Below, in pieces: positions 3,194 to 52,909 of a DNA stretch of 64,000 nt. The DNA is taken from assembly GCA_964548275.1 (NCBI GenBank), contig CAZJQI010000008.1, forward strand, positions 14,286 through 78,285. The letters are read 5' to 3'. The notes under the pieces were generated by a model. The model was not told the DNA's origin. It ran no database searches and saw nothing but the letters and a program-made list of their open reading frames with translations. Made by a program: the position numbers and the translations under genes. This DNA comes from an uncultured Gemmatimonadales bacterium. GTDB lineage: Bacteria > Gemmatimonadota > Glassbacteria > GWA2-58-10. How positions within the stretch are numbered: position 1 is the first letter of the stretch; every line of letters begins with the position of its first letter.

Positions 3194-3550
3194 ATGGATT
3201 TAGAAAGTGCAGCAAAAGGACTGGGCAAGCTTATTGTGCAGACCCCGGAATACAAATATTACAATCAGGCTGCCAAGGACGTGGAGGGGGACAATGAATT
3301 GAGTGAATTGATGAAAAATTTGAAAGAACTTGAACAAAAAGTGCTGGAGGCCCAGAAAGAGGGGAAAAAAATCAGCGAGGAACTCAAGGCCGAGTACAAC
3401 AGTTTCCTGGAGAAGGTTCAGGGAAAAACGAAAATCCAGTCGCTCATCGCCACCCAGGAAAATTACCTCAAGCTGATGAGCAAGGTGAATGAAATGATTG
3501 CGGAGGGGATTCGCGAGGGTGCACAAAGCCGGATCATAACCGATTTTTGA
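3194..3550 (+). CDS. YlbF/YmcA family regulatory protein (UPF0342)
   Basis: 118 aa helical protein. N-terminus (LGKLIVQTPEYKYYNQAAKDVEGDNELSELMKNLKEL) matches the YlbF/YheA pattern. Confidence 0.55.
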   Translation: MDLESAAKGLGKLIVQTPEYKYYNQAAKDVEGDNELSELMKNLKELEQKVLEAQKEGKKISEELKAEYNSFLEKVQGKTKIQSLIATQENYLKLMSKVNEMIAEGIREGAQSRIITDF

Positions 3551-3558
3551 GCTGGAAG

Positions 3559-4452
3559 ATGAAAGAATCGCTCGCCACACCGGGCAGTCTCTATGTTGTC
3601 GCCACGCCGCTCGGCAACCTGGATGACATTACCCACCGGGCCGTGGAATTTCTTAAAAAAGTACCGGTAATTGCCTGCGAGAATACCCGCCACAGCGGCA
3701 AATTGCTCTCCCGCTACAGTATAAAGGCCCGCCTGATCAGCTATCACGAGCACAACGAACAGACAGCGGCAGGCCAGGTTGTTTCTTTGCTGCAGTCAGG
3801 GTTTGATGTCGCTCTTATTTCCGATGCCGGAACGCCGGGTATTTCAGACCCTGGCTACCGGGTGGTGAAACTGGCCCTGGAGCAGGGTCTGGATGTGGTT
3901 CCGTTGCCCGGCCCTTCCGCCCTGACAACCGCGCTGAGCGTCTCAGGCCTGCCCACGGACAGTTTCTATTTTGCCGGGTGGGTCCCTTCCCGTGAAAAAG
4001 AACTCGAGAAAACTCTCGCAAAACTCTCCTCACTCAAGGCTACGCTGATTTTTTACTGTCCGGCCCGGAAAATAAAAAACGTTGTTGTCAAGTTCCGGCA
4101 GGTTCTCGGCAACCGTCGGGCTGTGGTCTGCCGCGAGCTTACCAAGATTCACGAGGAAATCCTCCGCGGTTCCCTTTCGGAGCTGGAAAAAACTCTCGCA
4201 GATAGAGATTCGGTCAAAGGCGAGATAGTGCTGATCGTGGAGGGTAACAGGGCAAAAGAGATTGAGCCTGGCGAGGATCTGGCAGCTCGTCTGGCAGAAT
4301 TGCTCGATAGCCTGGATAATGTCGGTTCAATGGGCGCTAAAAGGCTTACCACGCTTGCCGCCGAAAGACTTGGCAGTCCGAGGAACAGGGTTTACCCGCT
4401 GGTCTGTGCCTACTTGAACAGGCTAAAAGAGGGACAAGTAAGCAAAGATTGA
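3559..4452 (+). CDS. rsmI: 16S rRNA (cytidine1402-2'-O)-methyltransferase RsmI
   Basis: Signature GSLYVVATPLGNLDDIT and tetrapyrrole-methylase fold motifs. The ATG at 3559 is preferred over the TTG at 3547, which overlaps the ylbF stop. Confidence 0.85.
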   Translation: MKESLATPGSLYVVATPLGNLDDITHRAVEFLKKVPVIACENTRHSGKLLSRYSIKARLISYHEHNEQTAAGQVVSLLQSGFDVALISDAGTPGISDPGYRVVKLALEQGLDVVPLPGPSALTTALSVSGLPTDSFYFAGWVPSREKELEKTLAKLSSLKATLIFYCPARKIKNVVVKFRQVLGNRRAVVCRELTKIHEEILRGSLSELEKTLADRDSVKGEIVLIVEGNRAKEIEPGEDLAARLAELLDSLDNVGSMGAKRLTTLAAERLGSPRNRVYPLVCAYLNRLKEGQVSKD

Positions 4453-4462
4453 AAGAACCAGC

Positions 4463-5740
4463 CTAGTGGGGGCTCTGCAGGGCAATTATACCGGGCTTGT
4501 CGGGATGCTGAACTTGCCAGATTATTTCTCCTCCGGGGGCAAGCTTGGTTATCAGGCCTGATTCCGAACTTACATAGACCGTATTGTCGTGATTGCTGTA
4601 TGCCAGGCTCCAGGGCCTGCCAAGTCCGGAAATCCGTGCGGTAAAAGCGCCGCTCCTGTCGATTTCATAAACCATGTCACTGCCGTAATCCGCCACCCAG
4701 CAAATATCTCCTGTGGTATTAACAGTCAGGGAGGTCGGATCGCTGAATGTACTCGTTTTTGACACCATATCCTCATCATCGAACAGGAACACTTTCCTGG
4801 AGCCGGTATCGAGAATCCATGCTTCCGTGCCCTGCTCACCGAGCACCACGCCCTCTGGGGTGACAAATTCCGAGTGGGAGTAATGAACAATCTTTCCCTC
4901 ATTCATCTTGACTCTGGCCACCATAGGCTCTGAAGAGCCAACCCAGACATCCCCTCTCACATTATCCACTGTAATCGAGGTTACAGGCAAATTAGTGGAT
5001 TGGGAAAAAAGCAGCTCGCCGCTTCCTATCTGGAAGTGGTAAAGTAAGCCGCTATCACCCTTTATGGCAATCCAGACCGTACGGCCCCTTCTGCTGAACT
5101 CGAACGCGGCCACAGAGCTAAGGGTCGCACCCTCACCGATAGGTTCTCCACTGAACGTATAGCGGTAAATTTCATGGGAAGCCCTGTCGAGAATCCAGAG
5201 CTCCTGGTTCGCAGGATCGATCTGGATATCCTGGATGTTGAAAAATGTTGCGTCAAGTCTTCGGATCTCGTCCTTGAAATCAGGTGTCATGAGAATTATC
5301 TCGCCGTAATCGAACAGCTCCATCCATCCGAATATCTCTCCGGGAGTGGCGATATCCGGCAATGTCTTGGGCTTTTCGGTATTGCCTTTGAGCACGAACT
5401 GAAGATTGTAGCTGTAGGACACGCCGTTTGTCGCAGTGTTGTCCAGAAAAAAAGTCGTTCCAGGAGAGAGTATACTGTCGTTAAGCACCACAGTATCAGG
5501 TAAATCGGAGGAAAATCTCTGCACCCGGATACCCTCAAGATCGTCGAAATCAAGAGGATCCCAGAGGAGAAAAACCTGTCCGTTGCCAGCAAGCGCGTTA
5601 AAGCCCAAATTTGTCTGATAGCGATCCGGATTGCACGGATCGATTGGGTTGGACCGCGACCGGTCCGAGCAGCCCAGGCCTGACAGAAAGATTAATAGGA
5701 TTGGAATCGATAACTTGAGCAGCGCGGGTATCTTTTTCAA
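4463..5740 (-). CDS. Lipoprotein with predicted beta-propeller (NHL/YVTN-like) repeats, function unknown
   Basis: Signal peptide with Cys (LLIFLSGLGCSDRS). Repeated beta-strand-rich segments with WxxD/GxxY patterns. Confidence 0.45.
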   Translation of the reverse strand: MKKIPALLKLSIPILLIFLSGLGCSDRSRSNPIDPCNPDRYQTNLGFNALAGNGQVFLLWDPLDFDDLEGIRVQRFSSDLPDTVVLNDSILSPGTTFFLDNTATNGVSYSYNLQFVLKGNTEKPKTLPDIATPGEIFGWMELFDYGEIILMTPDFKDEIRRLDATFFNIQDIQIDPANQELWILDRASHEIYRYTFSGEPIGEGATLSSVAAFEFSRRGRTVWIAIKGDSGLLYHFQIGSGELLFSQSTNLPVTSITVDNVRGDVWVGSSEPMVARVKMNEGKIVHYSHSEFVTPEGVVLGEQGTEAWILDTGSRKVFLFDDEDMVSKTSTFSDPTSLTVNTTGDICWVADYGSDMVYEIDRSGAFTARISGLGRPWSLAYSNHDNTVYVSSESGLITKLAPGGEIIWQVQHPDKPGIIALQSPH

Positions 5741-19562: not shown

Positions 19563-21872
19563 ATGACCAAAAGCAGTCTGGCAGTGGCTTTAATGTTGAT
19601 TTTTGCGCACTTGAACGATCTCTGCGGCATTGACCTTCATCTCTATGAGGAAAGTTATCTGGACAGAGTATCGGAGCCGGTTACCTGCGGCGTTCCTTTG
19701 GCCCGGGGATACTGCAATTCGGCGGACGAGCTGGTTTTGAAAATCGGTGGTCAGCCTGTGCCGGTTGAAATCCGCGAGGTCAGCCGCTGGCCGGACGGTT
19801 CTTTGCGATGGGTTCATCTTGATTTCCAGGTAAGTGTGCCCGAAGGACGCCTGATTACTGCCTCGCTGGACAAGGGAAAGAGAGCCCCGGTGGATTCAAA
19901 GCTTAAAGTTGAAAAAACACCGCGTGCGATAACTGTCTCCACCGGCAGGCTCAAAGTCGAGGTCTCCCGGAGAAATTTCAATGTCTTCAATCGCATTCAG
20001 GTTCCCAGCGAGGACGGCCGGTATTTCAGGACACTGGTCAATCCTCACAGGCGCGGACTGGTCGCCTGGGCCGGCAAACAGGAATTCCTTGCTGCTAATG
20101 ACACCCTCTCGGTCGTGGAAATCGAAAGCAGCGGGCCAATACGCCTTGTGCTGCGCGCCGAGGGAAACTTTCAGGACACCAACGGCTTGAAACTGTTCCA
20201 CTATATCTGCCGGCTTTATTTCTACAGCGATTCCCCTGTTGTCCGTCTTGCTTTCACTTTTGAAAACCGTGACCCGGTGATCGAAAACAAGGTAGCTCTT
20301 CAGGGCCTCCACGTGGAAATCCCGACCACGATCAGGGGCGCAGGCGGAGCCTATGATATCGGAAAGCCGGGGGGAGATGTTCAGGGAATTTTCCCAAGCA
20401 GGGTTTCAATGGCCTGGGCCCTTGTCAATTCATCCTCCCTGTCCAGTTTTGGAACGGAATCCTTCTTTGAAATCGCCGGCAGCCCGAAAGAGGAAAAATC
20501 CTCTGAACTGGGCTGGATCAGTCTGGGCTCATCCAAAGGCATGGTGGGGGTGGGACTGCGCTACTTCTGGCAGATGTGGCCCTCGATCCTGGAGGTGAAT
20601 GCCAGCGGCCTGATAAGGGCGGGTCTCTTTCCGCAAAGGTTAAACCGCTCGATCGATATCTATTCTGGGGTGGCCCGCACGCATTACCTGCGCTTTGCTT
20701 TTCTTGGCGTGGGCGATCCGGAACGTATAGGCTCCCTGGTGAACTCCTGCCAGCAGCCTCTTCTTGCACTGGCTTCAACCAGCTACTACTGCCAGGAAAC
20801 ACGTGCCTTCGGAAACATCTTCGACCGCGATCTCAGAAATTACCCGAAAGAAAACAGAAAGATTGTAGAACACGTTGATGGCGAGCTGGATTATGGCTAC
20901 AGTCACATGATGAATATGATTGATGAGCGCACCGTGAACGGGGTTACCCGCGACAGTTACGGGTTCCTGAACTGGGGAGACGGATTGCATTATGCATGGG
21001 TGCCCGGAGAGGATAGTGAGTTGAACCTTTCCTGGAACCACCACTATTACGACCTTCCCCATATGAGCTGTATCGAGTTCGCCAGAACCGGCTGTCTCTG
21101 CTGGCTGGATTGTTTCCTTCCGCAAGCCCATCACCTGATGGACGTGCATATGGTTCATTTCGATCCTGAAAATGAGCTTAACGGCCACAATCGCTACTGC
21201 CCGAGTACCGACCATGTTCGCCTGGACCCCAAGGATGCCTCGGATTACCAGACTGCAAAAGTCTACGTTCACCCAAACCAGAACCATTCGAAAACACAGG
21301 GCATGTTCGACCGGTACCTGCTTACAGGTGATGAAAGAAGCTTTGAGGTTGCTCTTAAGGCGCTCGAATTTGCGGCTTCATTCGGCGCTTACGGTGATTT
21401 CAAACAGCCCAGGGGCGCCGCCCACCAGGTGATGACACTGGTTTATGGCTACCGAATAACCGGAGATAAGCGTTACCTCGATATTGCCCGGAGTTCATTC
21501 GAAAAATGGTGGGAGCACTTTCAAACAACCGAAACGAAATTCACCAGGCGCTTTTTCCAGGTCGGGCTGCTGCTCGAGGCCTTTATTGATTTGTACGAGG
21601 AAACCGGGGACAGGAGAATTATCGAATTTACCAGGCAGGCAGTCGATTGGATGCTGGAGAACAGACCGAATGACAGGTTCCCCAACATGAGCCTGGCTCT
21701 GGGTTTCCTGTCTGCCAGGCCCAAGGAGCCGCGCTACACCGAAATGTTGAAAGAGTATCTTATGCTCTGGAAAGGTGTTCAGGGAAATCCGTTCAAGGAT
21801 TTCGCCATGCACGGCAGGAATGTCGCCAGGGCGCTTTATTATCTGTCAAACGAGGCCAGAGGCTCGAAATGA
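19563..21872 (+). CDS. Secreted protein, unassigned family, paralog 1 of a tandem triplet (N-terminal beta-rich region, C-terminal alpha-helical region)
   Basis: 769 aa with signal peptide. Blocks shared with paralogs 2 and 3: EPVTCGVP, VSRWPDGSLRWVHLDFQ, LFHYICRLYF, ENRDPVIENKVALQGLHVEIPT, WGDG(L/M)HYAW, WNHHYYDLPHM, HHLMDVHMVHF, NRYCP.TDHV, HSKTQG(M/L)FDRY..TGDER, FKQPRGAA.QV. Confidence 0.7.
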   Translation: MTKSSLAVALMLIFAHLNDLCGIDLHLYEESYLDRVSEPVTCGVPLARGYCNSADELVLKIGGQPVPVEIREVSRWPDGSLRWVHLDFQVSVPEGRLITASLDKGKRAPVDSKLKVEKTPRAITVSTGRLKVEVSRRNFNVFNRIQVPSEDGRYFRTLVNPHRRGLVAWAGKQEFLAANDTLSVVEIESSGPIRLVLRAEGNFQDTNGLKLFHYICRLYFYSDSPVVRLAFTFENRDPVIENKVALQGLHVEIPTTIRGAGGAYDIGKPGGDVQGIFPSRVSMAWALVNSSSLSSFGTESFFEIAGSPKEEKSSELGWISLGSSKGMVGVGLRYFWQMWPSILEVNASGLIRAGLFPQRLNRSIDIYSGVARTHYLRFAFLGVGDPERIGSLVNSCQQPLLALASTSYYCQETRAFGNIFDRDLRNYPKENRKIVEHVDGELDYGYSHMMNMIDERTVNGVTRDSYGFLNWGDGLHYAWVPGEDSELNLSWNHHYYDLPHMSCIEFARTGCLCWLDCFLPQAHHLMDVHMVHFDPENELNGHNRYCPSTDHVRLDPKDASDYQTAKVYVHPNQNHSKTQGMFDRYLLTGDERSFEVALKALEFAASFGAYGDFKQPRGAAHQVMTLVYGYRITGDKRYLDIARSSFEKWWEHFQTTETKFTRRFFQVGLLLEAFIDLYEETGDRRIIEFTRQAVDWMLENRPNDRFPNMSLALGFLSARPKEPRYTEMLKEYLMLWKGVQGNPFKDFAMHGRNVARALYYLSNEARGSK

Positions 21873-21899
21873 ATAAGCCTGCAAGGCACGGATCGCTCT

Positions 21900-22070
21900 T
21901 TAACCGAAAAAAATTCCTCGAAGCTCTGCTCCGTGGTAGCCCACTCCTGAGACAAACGTAGGGGCAACCGGCAGGTTGCCCGCGGGGTGGGGATGAAATT
22001 GTGGCATCAAATTTATAAAAAGAATTCCGAACAGATACACCGCGGCTTGCCGCGGGGTAGATCATTTGAT
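21900..22070. repeat. Dispersed intergenic element, copy A (between paralogs 1 and 2)
   Basis: Left motif gaaaaaaattcctcgaagctctgctccgtggta, internal hairpin ggcaacc-ggca-ggttgcc, right motif gatacaccgcggcttgccgcggggtagatcatttgat with embedded tight hairpin ccgcggc-tt-gccgcgg. Confidence 0.6.
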
Positions 22071-22107: not shown

Positions 22108-24417
22108 ATGTTAAAAAACTTGCTTGCCGTTTTAATAGCCCTGTTCATTACTGTTTCATCCGTTGGAGCGGTAAAACTCTCAGTTGAGGAAAGAAGCGGG
22201 ATTGTGCGGGTAAGCGAGCCTGTCACCTGCGGTGTGCCTTTTGCCGAAAGTGCTGTTTATTCGGAAGACAGCCTCGTTTTGCTGAGAGGCACCTTGCCTG
22301 TGCCGGTTGAAATCCGCCAGGTCAGCCGCTGGCCGGACGGCTCTTTGCGCTGGGTTCACCTGGATTTTCAGGCCAGTGCTGGGCCATGGGAAAACGTCCG
22401 CTTTTCTCTGGAAAAAGGTCCCGCTCAGCCTTTAGCTTCCAGTCTCGAGGTAAAGCGTACTGCCCGAGGCTTCACAGTCGAAACCGGAAAGATAAAGGTC
22501 GAGGTGAAAAGGCGGGGTTTCAATGTATTTAACCGCGTCCTGCTTGCCGGGGAAAACGGAGATTTTGTGAAGGAACTTGTTGCTCCGCACAGTCGCGGAC
22601 TGGCCGCCTGGGCCGGTGGAGAGGAGTATCTTTCCGCCAATGACCAGGCCTCGACACTCCGGGTTGAAAGCTCAGGCCTCATGCGCGTGGTGCTGCGGGC
22701 GCAAGGAGAGTTGAAAAACAGATCGGGGAACAAGCTTTTTCATTATATCTGCCGGTTATATTTCTACAACGGCTCTCCAGTTGTCCGCCTTGTCGTGACT
22801 GTGGAAAACAGGAATCCGGTAATCGAAAACAAGGTCGCTCTTCAGGGACTTCACGTGGAAATTCCCACAACAATGGTTGAAAGCGGCACGGTTTTTCATA
22901 TCGGCGGCCGGGATAGACATCTGGAGGGCCGGTTTGCCGGTTACGGTTCCAATGCTTTTATTCTGGCGCCCTCCTCGGAGCGCTACACTTACGGTGGGGT
23001 GGTGGAAAGTTGGCCCGGCGGCAATGCCAAGACCGAAAGCTCGGACCGGCTGGGCTGGATTGGTATTGCAAGCTCTCGCGGCGCGGTGGCGGTTGGCTTG
23101 CGCGACTTCTGGCAGATGCATCCTTCAAGCCTGGAAGCAGCCTCGGATCAGGGCCTGCTGCTGGTCGGCCTTTTCCCCCTGCGGCTCGGCAGGTCGATTG
23201 ATATCTATTCCGGAGTGTCTCGTACCCACTACCTGCGCTTTGCCTTCACCAGCCAAAACGATCCCGAGTTGCTGTGCTCGCTGACCAGAGCCTGCCAGAA
23301 ACCTCTTACTGCTGTGGCCTCACCGGCCTATTACTGCCGGAAAAGCCGAGCTTTCGGCAAACTGGTAGAGCGAGAATTGTCTCTGTTCCCGGAAGAACAC
23401 CACGCGCTGGTTACCACGGTGCAGAGAGAAACGGACGGGGGTCTGGCCAATCTGCTCTCGCTGGTGGAATCCCGCACTAAAAACGGCGTGACAGTGGAGG
23501 GTTACGGCTATCTGGACTGGGGAGACGGAATGCATCATATCTGGGTGCCTGGAGTGAAAGACCCGCATAACATCTCCTGGAATGGTCATTACTATGATCT
23601 TCCTCATACCTGCTGCCTGGAATACGTGAGCACAGGCAACTGGCGGTACTACGACTTTTTCCTCAGCCGGGCCCAGCATTTGATGGATGTCCATATCGCG
23701 CATTTCGAGCCAGGTAACAAGCTTAACGGTGCCAACCGCTACTGCCCGCCCACCGACCATGTGAGAATCGATCCCAGAAGGCGGGGAGATTTCACCTCCG
23801 CCAGGGTTTACGTATCAAACTCGACCAATCACCACAAGACCCAGGGGCTTTTCGACCGTTTTTATCTTACCGGCGATGAACGGGCGCTCGAGGTGGCCCT
23901 GAAGGCTGTGGAATTCGCCAATTCTTTCGGGGCCTACCGGGATTTCAAACAGCCGCGCGGGGCTGGTTTCCAGGTCCTATCCCTGCTCGAGGCCTACCGT
24001 TACAGCGGCGAAGCCAGATACCTGGAAACCGCGAAAATGACATTCGAGGCCTGGTGGGAGCATTTCAGCACCACGGAGACCAAGTTCACCCGGGGCTATT
24101 TCATGGTCGGGTACCTGCTGGAGGCTTTCGTGGACTACTACGAGATTACCGGGGACAGCCGGGCTGTGGAATTCATCCGCCAGGCCGTGGACTGGATGAG
24201 CGCCAGCCGCCCGAACGACTTATTCTCCAACATGACACTGAGTATCGCCTTTCTGGCGCACCAGACCGGGGAGACCGAATATATCGAACTGGCGAAAAAA
24301 CACCTTTCCCGCTGGCACGGTGTCTGGGAAAACGCTTTCAAGGATTTCGGCCTTCACGGCAGGGGCATTGCCAGGGCGCTCTACTATTTTTCCGATCAAG
24401 CCAGAGGAAGCGATTGA
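22108..24417 (+). CDS. Secreted protein, unassigned family, paralog 2 of tandem triplet
   Basis: 769 aa with signal peptide. Colinear with paralog 1 along its entire length (by eye roughly 55-65% identical) and carries the same conserved blocks. Confidence 0.7.
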   Translation: MLKNLLAVLIALFITVSSVGAVKLSVEERSGIVRVSEPVTCGVPFAESAVYSEDSLVLLRGTLPVPVEIRQVSRWPDGSLRWVHLDFQASAGPWENVRFSLEKGPAQPLASSLEVKRTARGFTVETGKIKVEVKRRGFNVFNRVLLAGENGDFVKELVAPHSRGLAAWAGGEEYLSANDQASTLRVESSGLMRVVLRAQGELKNRSGNKLFHYICRLYFYNGSPVVRLVVTVENRNPVIENKVALQGLHVEIPTTMVESGTVFHIGGRDRHLEGRFAGYGSNAFILAPSSERYTYGGVVESWPGGNAKTESSDRLGWIGIASSRGAVAVGLRDFWQMHPSSLEAASDQGLLLVGLFPLRLGRSIDIYSGVSRTHYLRFAFTSQNDPELLCSLTRACQKPLTAVASPAYYCRKSRAFGKLVERELSLFPEEHHALVTTVQRETDGGLANLLSLVESRTKNGVTVEGYGYLDWGDGMHHIWVPGVKDPHNISWNGHYYDLPHTCCLEYVSTGNWRYYDFFLSRAQHLMDVHIAHFEPGNKLNGANRYCPPTDHVRIDPRRRGDFTSARVYVSNSTNHHKTQGLFDRFYLTGDERALEVALKAVEFANSFGAYRDFKQPRGAGFQVLSLLEAYRYSGEARYLETAKMTFEAWWEHFSTTETKFTRGYFMVGYLLEAFVDYYEITGDSRAVEFIRQAVDWMSASRPNDLFSNMTLSIAFLAHQTGETEYIELAKKHLSRWHGVWENAFKDFGLHGRGIARALYYFSDQARGSD

Positions 24418-31745: not shown

Positions 31746-32094
31746 CCTTTCCCTTCTTTAAGGATGTGAAAAGAAGACAAAAAAATAATATTAAGATTAT
31801 TATGTTTATATATAATTTTTCCTGAAAAAGTCAATATTCTAAATTCCAAAAAAATAAACAATAGTTGTTGATTGGTTGATTGTATGTGGCATGAAAATAT
31901 GGAGTTAGTCCACCCTATAAAAGACTATCATAGCTGCCCAGTATTTAGAAAAAAAGCAAAAAACATGCCTCGAAGAACTGGATGTGTTTAAGATTACTCG
32001 GAGATGCGATTATCCCGTTTCCTCCGGCAGCCGTAAGGCTGGGTGGATAGACAGGCGTACTGTAGATCATATTTTACTTGCAAATAAACGGATT

Positions 32095-32130
32095 GGGGCG
32101 TCAATCAATCCCTGACGCCTCCTTTTTTTC
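32095..32130 (+). terminator. Rho-independent terminator inside a 1.1 kb gene-free region
   Basis: 9-bp stem GGGGCGUCA / UGACGCCUC with 9-nt loop, followed by CUUUUUUU. No +strand CDS lies upstream of it. Confidence 0.6.
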
Positions 32131-32520
32131 AATAGGTGCCTTAGCAATTGTCTGCCCTTTCAGTTTAAAGCCGGGAAAAATCCCCCTCTCCGGGATAAAA
32201 TCTTTCCTGATCCTGCCGGAATCTTAAAGTGCTTTTCCGCGGCAAATTTTGCTTACGGGGCTTCTTCTTATTTGAAATGCTTAAGGAGAACCCCTATTTT
32301 TCTAATTGGAGGCGAAAACTCCATTGCAAGGAGCGTTTATATTTATATTTGAATTTCGTAAACCTGTAACCATGGATAAAGTCAATTTTCTATTTTGATT
32401 CTGGCTAAAGTGAAGGTATTTTTCATTTAGCGAGTTATTTTCCTGAGCTTCTCATATTTAACTTTGCGTGGGGAAATGATCCGTTCCCGGGATTGAGAAA
32501 ACCCAGGAGATGGCTTTAAA

Positions 32521-32735
32521 GTTTAATCGAGAAGAATTCCCCGAAGCTTTGCTCCATAGTAAACAACCCGGGGATCGGCAGGTAATCCCCATTAACAAAA
32601 GGGAATCAATATGTAATCCCCCTAAAAAAGGGGAAGACAGGGGGTTGTCTTGATGTGTTCGCCCTCGGAGGAAATAAGATCGACCAAATTCATCATTATG
32701 ATACTCCGCGGCTTGCCGCTGGGCAGCTCATTTAT
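32521..32735. repeat. Dispersed intergenic element, copy B (upstream of mtaB)
   Basis: Left motif tttaatcgagaagaattccccgaagctttgctccatagtaaa. Internal units taatccccattaacaaaaggga / taatccccctaaaaaagggga / agacagggggttgtc. Right motif gatactccgcggcttgccgctgggcagctcatttatt. Confidence 0.6.
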
Positions 32736-32836
32736 TTTCGCTTTATAATTGGTTTAATTTAAATTAATTAGGACTCTTAACCTGAAGTGATTTATCAGGT
32801 ACAATTGGCCTTTCTGTTTCCGGGATACGATAGGGA

Positions 32837-43453: not shown

Positions 43454-44311
43454 TTGGAATTAAGCGAACAAACCAAGGAACTAATCAGCAAAGCATTAGC
43501 TGAAGATATCGGTAGCGGCGACTACACCACGTTGTGGTCCGTGCCTGGTGATCATAGAACTACGGCCAGGATTATCGCTCGGGGCACTGGAATTGTCGCC
43601 GGCATGCCGGTGGCCAAGTATCTTGTCACGCGGTTCGACCCGGAACCGGTCCTGGAATCGGCGACCCCGGACGGCCAGATAACAACTGCCGGGCAGGTGG
43701 TGATAGAGCTGACAGGTTTGACCAGACATCTTCTGAGCATTGAGCGTTCCCTGCTCAATTTTCTTCAACGGCTCTCCGGTATTGCCACCCTGACCCGCAG
43801 GTTTGTCGACAGGGTCGAAGGCACAGGTGTGAAAATCCTCGATACACGCAAAACCACTCCCGGTTTGAGAGAACTCGAAAAGTATGCTGTGAGAGTTGGT
43901 GGCGGTTTCAACCACCGCCTCGGACTCTACGATTACGTGTTGCTCAAGGAAAACCATATCTCCGCCGCAGGAGGAATTACTAAGGCTGTCCAGGCGGTGA
44001 AAAAGGCGAATCACCGGAACCTGCCGGTCGAGGTCGAGACCTGCACACTGGATGAAGTGCGCGAAGCGTTGAAAGCAGGGGTTTCGCGGATCATGCTTGA
44101 TAACATGACAGTGGAGCAGATGAAAGTTGCGGTGGAGCTTATCCGCAACATCGATGCCCGCCCTGTCCCGGAGATAGAGGCCAGCGGCGACATTAATTTA
44201 AAAACCGTCATGGAGGTAGCCGCAACCGGGGTGGATTTTATTTCAGTCGGTACGTTGACCCACTCCGCGCCTGTGCTGAACTTAACCATGATTATTGAGC
44301 CCGGCCTGTAA
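43454..44311 (+). CDS. nadC: Nicotinate-nucleotide pyrophosphorylase (carboxylating) NadC
   Basis: ALAEDIGSGDYTT, LDTRKTTPGLR, LLKENH motifs. Confidence 0.85.
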   Translation: MELSEQTKELISKALAEDIGSGDYTTLWSVPGDHRTTARIIARGTGIVAGMPVAKYLVTRFDPEPVLESATPDGQITTAGQVVIELTGLTRHLLSIERSLLNFLQRLSGIATLTRRFVDRVEGTGVKILDTRKTTPGLRELEKYAVRVGGGFNHRLGLYDYVLLKENHISAAGGITKAVQAVKKANHRNLPVEVETCTLDEVREALKAGVSRIMLDNMTVEQMKVAVELIRNIDARPVPEIEASGDINLKTVMEVAATGVDFISVGTLTHSAPVLNLTMIIEPGL

Positions 44312-46191: not shown

Positions 46192-46660
46192 TTTAATCGA
46201 AAAGAATTCCCCGAAGCTCTGCTTTGGTGTAAATTGCTTTATGGTTTTATCCTTGTTTTCATAGAGTTGCCTCGTGACACATACAATATTTATTCTCATC
46301 CTTCACAATTCGGGAAGAATGGGATTTAAACCTGGGGATCTTATTTCAGATCGTGCTTGAAAGCCACCATTCCCTCCTAACAAGGGGGTACATTCCAAAT
46401 TTTCCCCTATCAAGGGGGTTCATTCCAATTCCCTCCTAACAAGGGGGTACATTCCAAATTTTCTCCTATCAAGGGGGTTCATTCCAATTCCCCCCTATCA
46501 AGGGGGGACATTCCAAATTCCCCCCTATCAAGGGGGGAGACAGGGGGGTGTTATATTAAACAGTTGGGGTTTGGTACCCGAAATCGGGATCACGAATTTC
46601 AGGGATTCACACAAAAATTACACTGATACTCCGAGGCTTACCGCGGGGTAGTTCATTTAT
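46192..46660. repeat. Dispersed intergenic element, copy C (expanded copy, contains the tandem hairpin array)
   Basis: Left motif tttaatcgaaaagaattccccgaagctctgctttggtgtaaa at 46192. Right motif gatactccgaggcttaccgcggggtagttcatttat at 46625. Interior holds expanded repeats ending in agacaggggggtgt, as in copy B. Confidence 0.6.
46368..46549. repeat. Tandem array of ~29-30 bp hairpin-forming units (alternating two unit types, ~59 bp higher-order repeat, about 3 copies)
   Basis: Contiguous units cattccaa(a)ttccctcctaacaagggggta and cattccaaattttcccctatcaagggggtt. Each contains a C-tract...G-tract able to pair (CCCCC-N6-GGGGG). There are no intervening spacers. Confidence 0.8.
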
Positions 46661-52340: not shown

Positions 52341-52412
52341 AAAAAGGGAAAGGTTATTCTTGTTTGACTAAAGGGGAGCGGGCCTGTGAGCCGCTTCCCT
52401 TTTTTCTTTTTT

Positions 52413-52500
52413 AGTCCAAAAGAATCGCTCGAATCTTTACCCCGGAGTAATCCTTCCAGAAGATCAGTCTTTAATCCCCCCTTTGGAAAAGACTCGTTCT
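52413..52500. repeat. Possible degenerate copy D of the dispersed intergenic element
   Basis: agtccaaaagaatcgctcgaatctttacc resembles the left-end motif (about 20/31). Followed by taatccttccagaag and tttaatcccccctttggaaaagac, which resemble internal units. Confidence 0.3.
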
Positions 52501-52909
52501 CTGCACTAGCTTTGGAAAGGTGATTATAATTGGTGCAAAGGTTGCCAATCACAGTATTTGCTTCTCCTATCAGATGACGGGGGAAACTTTCAGCATGAAG
52601 ATGTTTGCTGAAATCCTGCCGCCGATTTATCGATTGCGGTGTTATGCAGCTTAAAATGAGGGGAAAAACATTTATTTTTTTTTGCTATGATCAATATACC
52701 ACTTGACACTTTGAAAGAAAACAATTAATTATAATTAAAGAAGTTTAAAATCCTTCCGATTCCGGGCAGGAGGACATAATATTGCGATAAAACAAAAGAA
52801 AGCCAAACCAAGGCATAACAGTTTTAATATAGAGAATAGCGGTTTATATCCCCCCTCCTATTAATCCCTTATAATCTATTATTCGAAGTAATCTGCGCAG
52901 GAGGGCTCT

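Follow-up and report, generated by a model that had tools for sequence, protein, structure and literature searches.

Short transposase-less elements with IS200-type ends in intergenic regions of a Glassbacteria-like genome

Three intergenic loci in the 64,000-nt stretch of DNA analysed in this study (hereafter the window) carry short elements, designated A, B and C, whose ends are homologous to those of a complete IS200-type element. The elements have no coding capacity and neither inverted repeats nor target duplications. Copies are present at multiple loci, and orthologous sites vary in their occupancy. Since they lack tnpA, terminal inverted repeats and target duplications, we assign them with high confidence to the palindrome-associated transposable elements (PATEs) of the IS200/IS605 family, that is, to short transposase-less derivatives of an IS200-type element.

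Ends and interiors of the elements in the window

A first-pass annotation of this DNA had described shared left and right ends, in the same orientation, at the three intergenic loci, and the motif counts bear this out. In a scan of the window, the right-end hairpin motif CCGCGGCTTGCCGCGG (≤2 mismatches) was found at 22040, 32706 and 46631, always on the + strand; with 0.11 expected, there were 4 matches in total, of which one is the palindrome matching itself in reverse. The left-end core AAGAATTCCCCGAAGCT (≤3 mismatches) was found at 21909, 32532 and 46202, again on the + strand (three loci against 0.22 expected). The left boundary is 17 nt from the left-end hairpin, the right-end hairpin is 10 nt from the right boundary, and every copy in the window is preceded by a conserved TTTAAT. 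The two hairpins of a copy lie on the same strand in direct orientation, each with its own left-end prefix or right-end tail (Table 1).

Table 1. Positions in the window of the elements, very probably PATEs, and of their parts
Feature	Position	Strand	Description
Left end common to A, B and C		+	TTTAATCGAAAAGAATT, then 9-bp hairpin
Right end common to A, B and C		+	GATAC, then related hairpin, then 10-nt tail TAGTTCATTT
Element A (type A)	21899..22067	+	169 nt; between two tandem 769-aa PcRGLX/GH127-like genes
A left end	21899..21936	+	Prefix TTTAACCGAAAAAAATT (21899-21915); hairpin CCTCGAAGC-TCT-GCTCCGTGG (21916-21936), 7/9 pairs
A interior	21958..21981	+	REP-like hairpin GTAGGGGCAACC-GGCA-GGTTGCCC; also in L071, L122, L124 and L128
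A right end	22038..22067	+	Hairpin CACCGCGGC-TT-GCCGCGGGG (22038-22057); 10-nt tail TAGATCATTT
Element B (type B)	32522..32733	+	212 nt; 104 nt upstream of MiaB/RimO-like radical SAM gene
B left end	32522..32559	+	Prefix 32522-32538; decayed hairpin CCCCGAAGC-TTT-GCTCCATAG, 5/9 pairs
B interior	32582..32649	+	Two C-tract/G-tract hairpin units, then hairpin AAGACA-GGGGG-TTGTC
B right end	32704..32733	+	Hairpin CTCCGCGGC-TT-GCCGCTGGG; tail CAGCTCATTT
Element C (type C)	46192..46658	+	467 nt; between coaX and cyt-b5/DUF2231 gene
C left end	46192..46229	+	Prefix 46192-46208; hairpin CCCCGAAGC-TCT-GCTTTGGTG, 7/9 pairs plus one G-T
C tandem array	46369..46536	+	Period about 30 nt, 5.7 copies (six units), each a CCCC(C)-TATCAA-GGGG(G) hairpin
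C right end	46629..46658	+	Hairpin CTCCGAGGC-TT-ACCGCGGGG (two mismatches); tail TAGTTCATTT
Element D (decayed type B relic)	52410..52594	+	52410-52491 (left end and first unit) solid; remainder to about 52594 tentative

The left-end HMM built from foreign loci only matched the + strand of the window at 46192 (C, E = 9e-11), 21900 (A, E = 6e-10) and 32521 (B, E = 5e-8). A Glassbacteria-type profile without window sequences gave E = 4.9e-13, 1.4e-12 and 2.7e-11 for the same three left ends. The right-end HMM from foreign loci matched at 22032 (A, E = 2e-4), 46625 (C, E = 2.5e-3) and 32696 (B, E = 5.5e-3), also on the + strand. Besides the ends of A, B and C, these foreign-locus HMMs had no other significant match in the window.

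A further copy at 52.4 kb, which had been listed as possible, is real but decayed. The left-end profile made from Glassbacteria-type copies, with no window sequences, matches 52410-52449 on the + strand over its full length (E = 1.1e-3), and 30 of 41 positions agree with the consensus, the best chance match being 25. Local alignment of D with the type B element L127 (loci outside the window are given L numbers) scored 58 as against 23.9 ± 3.8 for shuffles and extends to the tentative end of the relic. A right-end hairpin of D was not found in the right-end profile search of the window.

Between their ends, A, B and C are variable, and our direct reading of the sequence agrees on this point with the earlier description. 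B and C have AACCYGGGGATC and GAGACAGGGGG(G)T(T)GT in common, the latter being the ending that had been ascribed to both. Within the window, the C-tract/G-tract hairpin unit is confined to the element interiors. The organisation of B matches that of L127 and L131, both of which are other loci; L127 has one unit and B has two. Among type C copies, the 30-nt unit is present six times in the window, four times in L123 and three times in L130. The cargo is composed of non-coding palindromic modules whose number changes, most likely via slippage or unequal recombination.

All copies had been reported to lie in unusually long intergenic spaces. The spacers of A, B, C and D are indeed long (235, 1091, 658 and 569 nt, respectively), but for A and C the length is mostly the element itself (169 of 235 nt and 467 of 658 nt), whereas B makes up just 212 of 1091 nt.

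Several details surround these elements. The end of A is 41 nt from the start codon of the second of two flanking paralogues (19563-21872 and 22108-24417), both of which have PcRGLX-like and GH127-like domains. Inside A, a partial left-end prefix, ATAAAAAGAATTCC, is located at 22015-22030 directly ahead of the right end, a hint that type A goes back to two units in tandem or in a composite. A short type A variant in L122 (2150-2242, - strand), which shares its contig with a full type A copy (655-823), has the interior TTGCCCGCGGGG joined directly to the right-end tail; this variant shows a deletion between short internal repeats. In the spacer upstream of B, a segment of 378 nt (31951-32328) is missing in the same-species contig L135, with 3-4 nt of microhomology at the junction. 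The segment holds a terminator-like hairpin followed by T7 (about 32096-32130), a faint left-end-like CCTCGAAG at 31969 and a faint right-end-like CCGCGGCAAATTTTGCTTACGGGG at 32239. The segment may be what is left of an older element, or its absence from L135 may reflect a strain-level deletion.

Autonomous relatives and class of the elements

The genome collection, with one genome per species, was scanned with a 17-mer of the left-end core. The scan yielded 118 loci, about two thirds of which are chance single matches. At 37 of the 118 loci the similarity extends to the 40-nt consensus TTTAATCAAAAGAATT-CCTCGAAGC-TCT-GCTTCGGGG, and these loci belong to Bacteroidota, Ignavibacteriales, Nitrospirota/Thermodesulfovibrionia, Desulfobacterota, CPR (Roizmanbacteria) and Candidatus Glassbacteria. 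At least 12 of these loci have a second motif 100-250 nt downstream, GATA-CCTCGCAGC-TCT-GCTGCGGGG-TAGTTCATTA, which is the counterpart of the right end in the window. L057 of Bacteroidota contains a complete element of 570 nt (3554-4122) composed of the left end, tnpA (150 aa) and the right end, with prefix, hairpin and tail alike. The ORF product is a Y1 transposase (Pfam Y1_Tnp PF01797, 'Transposase IS200 like', E = 8e-34). L060, L078 and L033 have the same layout. Since tnpA is flanked in all four loci by the ends shared with the window, these ends are IS200-type insertion-sequence termini.

The TnpA clade of L057 comprises more than 6000 clusters, mostly on contigs of less than 2 kb, and is multicopy. 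The homologue search gave thousands of TnpA matches, with no usable taxon labels by which to recognise one from Glassbacteria. Autonomous copies were seen in Bacteroidota only. A cognate tnpA is absent from the window (tblastn with TnpA, best E = 2.8) and from the Glassbacteria-like contigs examined. The ends had no match in E. coli genomes or plasmids, and there was only weak tnpA similarity in Piscirickettsia plasmids. In the literature searched, the end sequences were not found, the one match being irrelevant.

PATEs were first defined in Haloquadratum walsbyi by four criteria: no terminal inverted repeats, palindromes near both termini, no target duplication, and a length too short for a transposase (PMC3119063). 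In A, B and C, comparison of the left terminus with the reverse complement of the right terminus gives at best 5-6 matches in 15 positions, and hairpins are located near both termini. Target-site duplications had been proposed as a check on the flanks; no adjacent direct repeat is common to the flanks of A, B and C. The copies of 169, 212 and 467 nt do not encode a transposase. A further practical criterion is that the ends are held in common with an autonomous Y1-TnpA element, as they are through L057, L060, L078 and L033. Finally, copies are found at several unrelated loci with differing occupancy, four being in the window and others, L122, L123, L127 and L130, being siblings elsewhere.

The first-pass annotation had taken the copies for a MITE- or REP/BIME-like element, non-autonomous and either mobile or recombinogenic. 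The mobile class stands, given the IS200-type ends; the exact class is very probably PATE, neither classical MITE nor REP/BIME. Classical MITEs are likewise small, non-coding and multicopy and are mobilised in trans, as the present elements would be. They were ruled out, since the present elements have neither terminal inverted repeats nor target-site duplications.

The hairpin is under structural constraint. In 34 distinct left- and right-end hairpins, 88.6% of cells pair. Compensatory changes are found at pair 6 (A-T in left ends, C-G in right ends, and additionally a G-C variant in L143) and at pair 7, which is A-T generally and G-C in Glassbacteria-type right ends. The observed covariation was matched by none of 500 shuffles.

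REP/BIME repeats are serviced by a domesticated single-copy RAYT and have a host role, such as mRNA stabilisation or the binding of gyrase or IHF. RAYTs acting on them belong to the same superfamily as the IS200-type Y1 (HUH) transposase. The present copies are intergenic, hairpin-based and dense (4 copies in 64 kb), as REP/BIME repeats are; however, the repeated entity is the whole composite of 169-467 nt, a direct left-end and right-end pair with cargo, not a palindrome of 20-40 nt, and its hairpins are direct, not inverted, with a distinct left-end prefix or right-end tail. Type A does contain a REP-like, GTAG-led palindrome that is also free-standing in Glassbacteria-like loci, but this palindrome is just a cargo module of type A. 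Some TnpA homologues are labelled 'RayT' by JGI, which is merely a generic COG name; both ends match an autonomous IS200-type element, the transposase gene belongs to a multicopy IS and is no single-copy RAYT, and no RAYT gene flanked by repeats was seen. We consider it very unlikely that the copies are REP/BIME repeats. The GTAG-headed REP-style palindromes themselves, GTAGGGGC(G/A)ACC-loop-GGT(C/T)GCCC, stand free at L071 1071-1150, L124 3989-4060 and L128 736-770, once as an inverted pair, and may be a separate repeat family.

A family of structured non-coding RNA genes, which had been offered earlier as an alternative, is more improbable still. In such genes the conserved ends would be a promoter and a terminator framing variable protein-binding hairpins. 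A sigma-70-like sequence, TTCATA-18-TACAAT, is indeed located at 46258-46287 upstream of the six-hairpin array of C, but matches to promoter and terminator consensus sequences are at chance level. The stem variants of the array are mostly C->T changes that retain G-U pairing on the + strand; however, there are no compensatory changes in the array stems. Folding of C gave z = -2.3, and z-scores of -0.7 to -2.3 are weak. The covariance-model search with Rfam (15) yielded no match at the gathering score in the window and 18 related loci, and none at the elements even at E ≤ 5. No tRNA or tmRNA was found in a tRNA/tmRNA scan. Conservation across subtypes and phyla is limited to the IS ends, whereas A, B and C have interiors that are unrelated or only partly related, and the orientation to neighbouring ORFs is unbiased (46 co-oriented vs 36 opposed for 49 elements).

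It is hardly credible that the ends are a cis-regulatory site, such as an operator, promoter or attenuator, common to the downstream genes. All four copies are upstream of + strand genes, but these genes are unrelated: they encode a glycoside hydrolase-like protein, a radical SAM enzyme, a cyt-b5/DUF2231 protein and a FadL-like porin. The same ends have unrelated neighbouring genes in at least six lineages of phylum rank (Bacteroidota including Ignavibacteriales, Nitrospirota, Desulfobacterota, CPR and Glassbacteria among them), and L132 retains the coaX|cyt-b5 arrangement without the element. A promoter-like match overlaps the right end of B (32720-32749), but the counts of promoter and terminator consensus matches are those expected by chance.

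The same ends are also found in other settings. 'Solo' forms of 47-48 nt, composed of the left-end prefix, a single hairpin and the right-end tail, are present in L017 (4741-4788), L087 (5884-5928), L006 (938-985) and L044 (4625-4670). By analogy with solo LTRs, they would be the expected product of recombination between the identical left- and right-end hairpins of an autonomous IS. PATEs of Nitrospirota and CPR have the same ends with other palindromic cargo, namely CCCTCCCC...GGGGAGGG in L018, L019, L037, L082, L093 and L099; modules of GTCATTCCCGC...GCGGGAATCC are the cargo in L091, L094, L095, L115, L073 and L024. Intergenic DNA from metagenomes commonly contains the CCCTCCCC and GTCATTCCCGC modules. 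The end pair seems to be a carrier for different small palindromes. In the unrelated contig L126, 24 nt (4031-4054) are identical to the left-end prefix; the 3' arm of the hairpin is missing, and the site is apparently within a coding region. This is a fragment or else a chance match of a rare kind.

Dispersal, orthologous sites and assembly breaks

A metagenome scan with the window-type left end gave nine loci. L122 has a type A copy 92% identical to A over 169 nt, L123 and L130 have type C copies of 89-94% identity, and L127 has a type B copy; all are at other loci, and their flanks differ from those of the window copies. The homology between window and sibling copies starts at TTTAAT and ends directly after TCATTT, and outside these limits the flanks diverge at once. 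The left-end hairpins of the siblings are largely or fully intact (9/9 pairs in L127 and L130, 8/9 in L122 and 7/9 in L123), whereas every complete copy in the window has one or more weakened hairpins, the right-end hairpin of C included (Table 1). Better-preserved siblings are present in the same or closely related populations. Sample Ga0114922 contains sibling copies plus a 99.6%-identical strain (L137), so the siblings are probably from the same species.

Confinement of the motifs to the window loci and a lack of insertion polymorphism had been named beforehand as signs against a mobile element. The motifs occur at other loci and in other phyla, and the occupancy of orthologous sites is variable. 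The closest named relatives of the window CoaX are Candidatus Glassbacteria MAGs (72-74% identity). The comparison of orthologous loci, which the first-pass annotation had recommended, revealed that the site downstream of coaX is occupied by type C in the window and by type B in L131, that it has a left end in L143, and that it is empty in L132. The coaX|cyt-b5 spacer of L132 (CoaX 88%) is 67 nt long. In L131 (CoaX 94%), a left end is located at the position identical to that in the window, past a conserved 28-nt spacer; the type B interior is cut by a DDE-type IS, the right end is at 4778-4813, and the downstream gene is different. The simplest reading of the L131 arrangement is recombination between two copies. 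Nested inside this type B element is an IS4/IS5-type DDE transposase gene (3257-4558; DUF772 + DDE_Tnp_1).

L143, a named Glassbacteria MAG (CoaX 72%), has its left end in the coaX spacer (E = 5.7e-11), and no left end was found within 20.8 kb in L144 (CoaX 69%). The rubrerythrin|nifU spacer holds a decayed type B element in L132 and is empty in the window. Part of the variable occupancy could come from deletion rather than insertion.

All same-species contigs searched carry the elements, and an exact empty site was not found among them. The only indel among the same-species contigs is the absence of 31951-32328 in L135, outside element B. Same-species contigs of 99.5-100% identity stop at 22001, 32542, 46165 and 46221. 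All four positions fall within or at copies of the element, as is typical of the effect of multicopy repeats on assemblies. In L121, from the same sample as L135, 223 nt corresponding to 44088-44310 of the window (the 3' end of nadC/QRPTase) are lacking, and the nadC product is 226 aa as against 285 aa. A deletion in the strain or an artefact of assembly could account for this gap.

Proposed movement and relation to known systems

Elements of the IS200/IS605 family move by single-strand 'peel and paste' transposition catalysed by Y1 TnpA, with preference for the lagging-strand template (PMC5027513). For the present elements, a Y1 (HUH) TnpA from an autonomous copy elsewhere would act in trans and bind both hairpins on single-stranded DNA at the replication fork. 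The top strand would then be excised as a circle, and the circle would be inserted 3' of a short (tetra- or pentanucleotide) target motif, which is placed tentatively within the conserved TTTAAT ahead of each copy. The lack of inverted repeats and target duplications would be due to this 'peel and paste' route. What is said here of movement in trans, of cleavage and of a bias at the replication fork is inferred from family homology. The GC skew of the + strand is positive over most of the window, and the + strand is the active strand of all four copies. If the + strand is taken as the lagging-strand template, this would be the preferred orientation of the family; four copies in one orientation are weak statistics (p about 0.125). 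Since every complete copy in the window has a weakened hairpin or hairpins, the window copies are probably ageing or dead, and they may no longer be mobile.

IS200 of Salmonella and IS608 of Helicobacter pylori have an imperfect hairpin of 9-10 bp near each end, on the same strand, and a conserved short motif directly 5' of the left end, as the window copies have. In IS608, the right-end hairpin is followed by a 10-nt tail, and this is also the case in the window copies. The differences are that the window copies have no tnpA and that the hairpin sequence is not the same.

PATE-like elements have been described in Geobacillus stearothermophilus (PMC10055086) and Halanaerobium hydrogeniformans (PMC7290912). 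Like the known PATEs, the present elements have near-terminal palindromes and the ends of an autonomous IS, with no inverted terminal repeats, no target duplications and no transposase. They differ from the known PATEs in three respects. Their parent has tnpA alone and is of the IS200 type, as opposed to an IS605/IS1341-type element with tnpB, and an omega-RNA-like scaffold could not be detected; the cargo consists of exchangeable palindromic modules, including a 30-nt hairpin array of variable number; and the ends are near-identical across several bacterial phyla. Thus, this is a new family of a known principle, namely that a hairpin-recognising transposase made elsewhere can move gene-less passengers. 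What goes beyond routine is the cross-phylum near-identity of the ends, the modular palindromic cargo of variable number and the solo forms of 47-48 nt.

A more far-reaching idea, which we consider unlikely, is that the IS200-type ends are a cross-phylum 'chassis' for swappable hairpin cassettes and that the cargo is functional, either as a transcribed hairpin-array RNA or as an array that binds a protein or a DNA structure. The cassettes would be the variable 30-nt CCCC-TATCAA-GGGG array, the GTAG-led palindromes, and the GTCATTCCCGC and CCCTCCCC palindromes of other phyla. If this were true, the array would benefit the element or the host, and a cassette swap at a fixed left end would explain why type C and type B are found at one orthologous site.

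Current IS200/IS605 biology is unchanged by this PATE family. The copies explain why several intergenic spacers of a Glassbacteria-like genome are long and 'empty' and why its assemblies break where they do, and the pair of end motifs is usable by annotators for masking. The copies are likely to be substrates for recombination and rearrangement, as in L131 with its altered interior, its different downstream gene and its nested IS. One IS200-type end pair has spread, nearly unchanged, over Bacteroidota, Nitrospirota, Desulfobacterota, CPR and Glassbacteria. It exists in three forms, the autonomous element, the cargo-bearing PATE and the 47-nt single-hairpin solo relic, and this illustrates a possible IS origin of REP-like hairpins.
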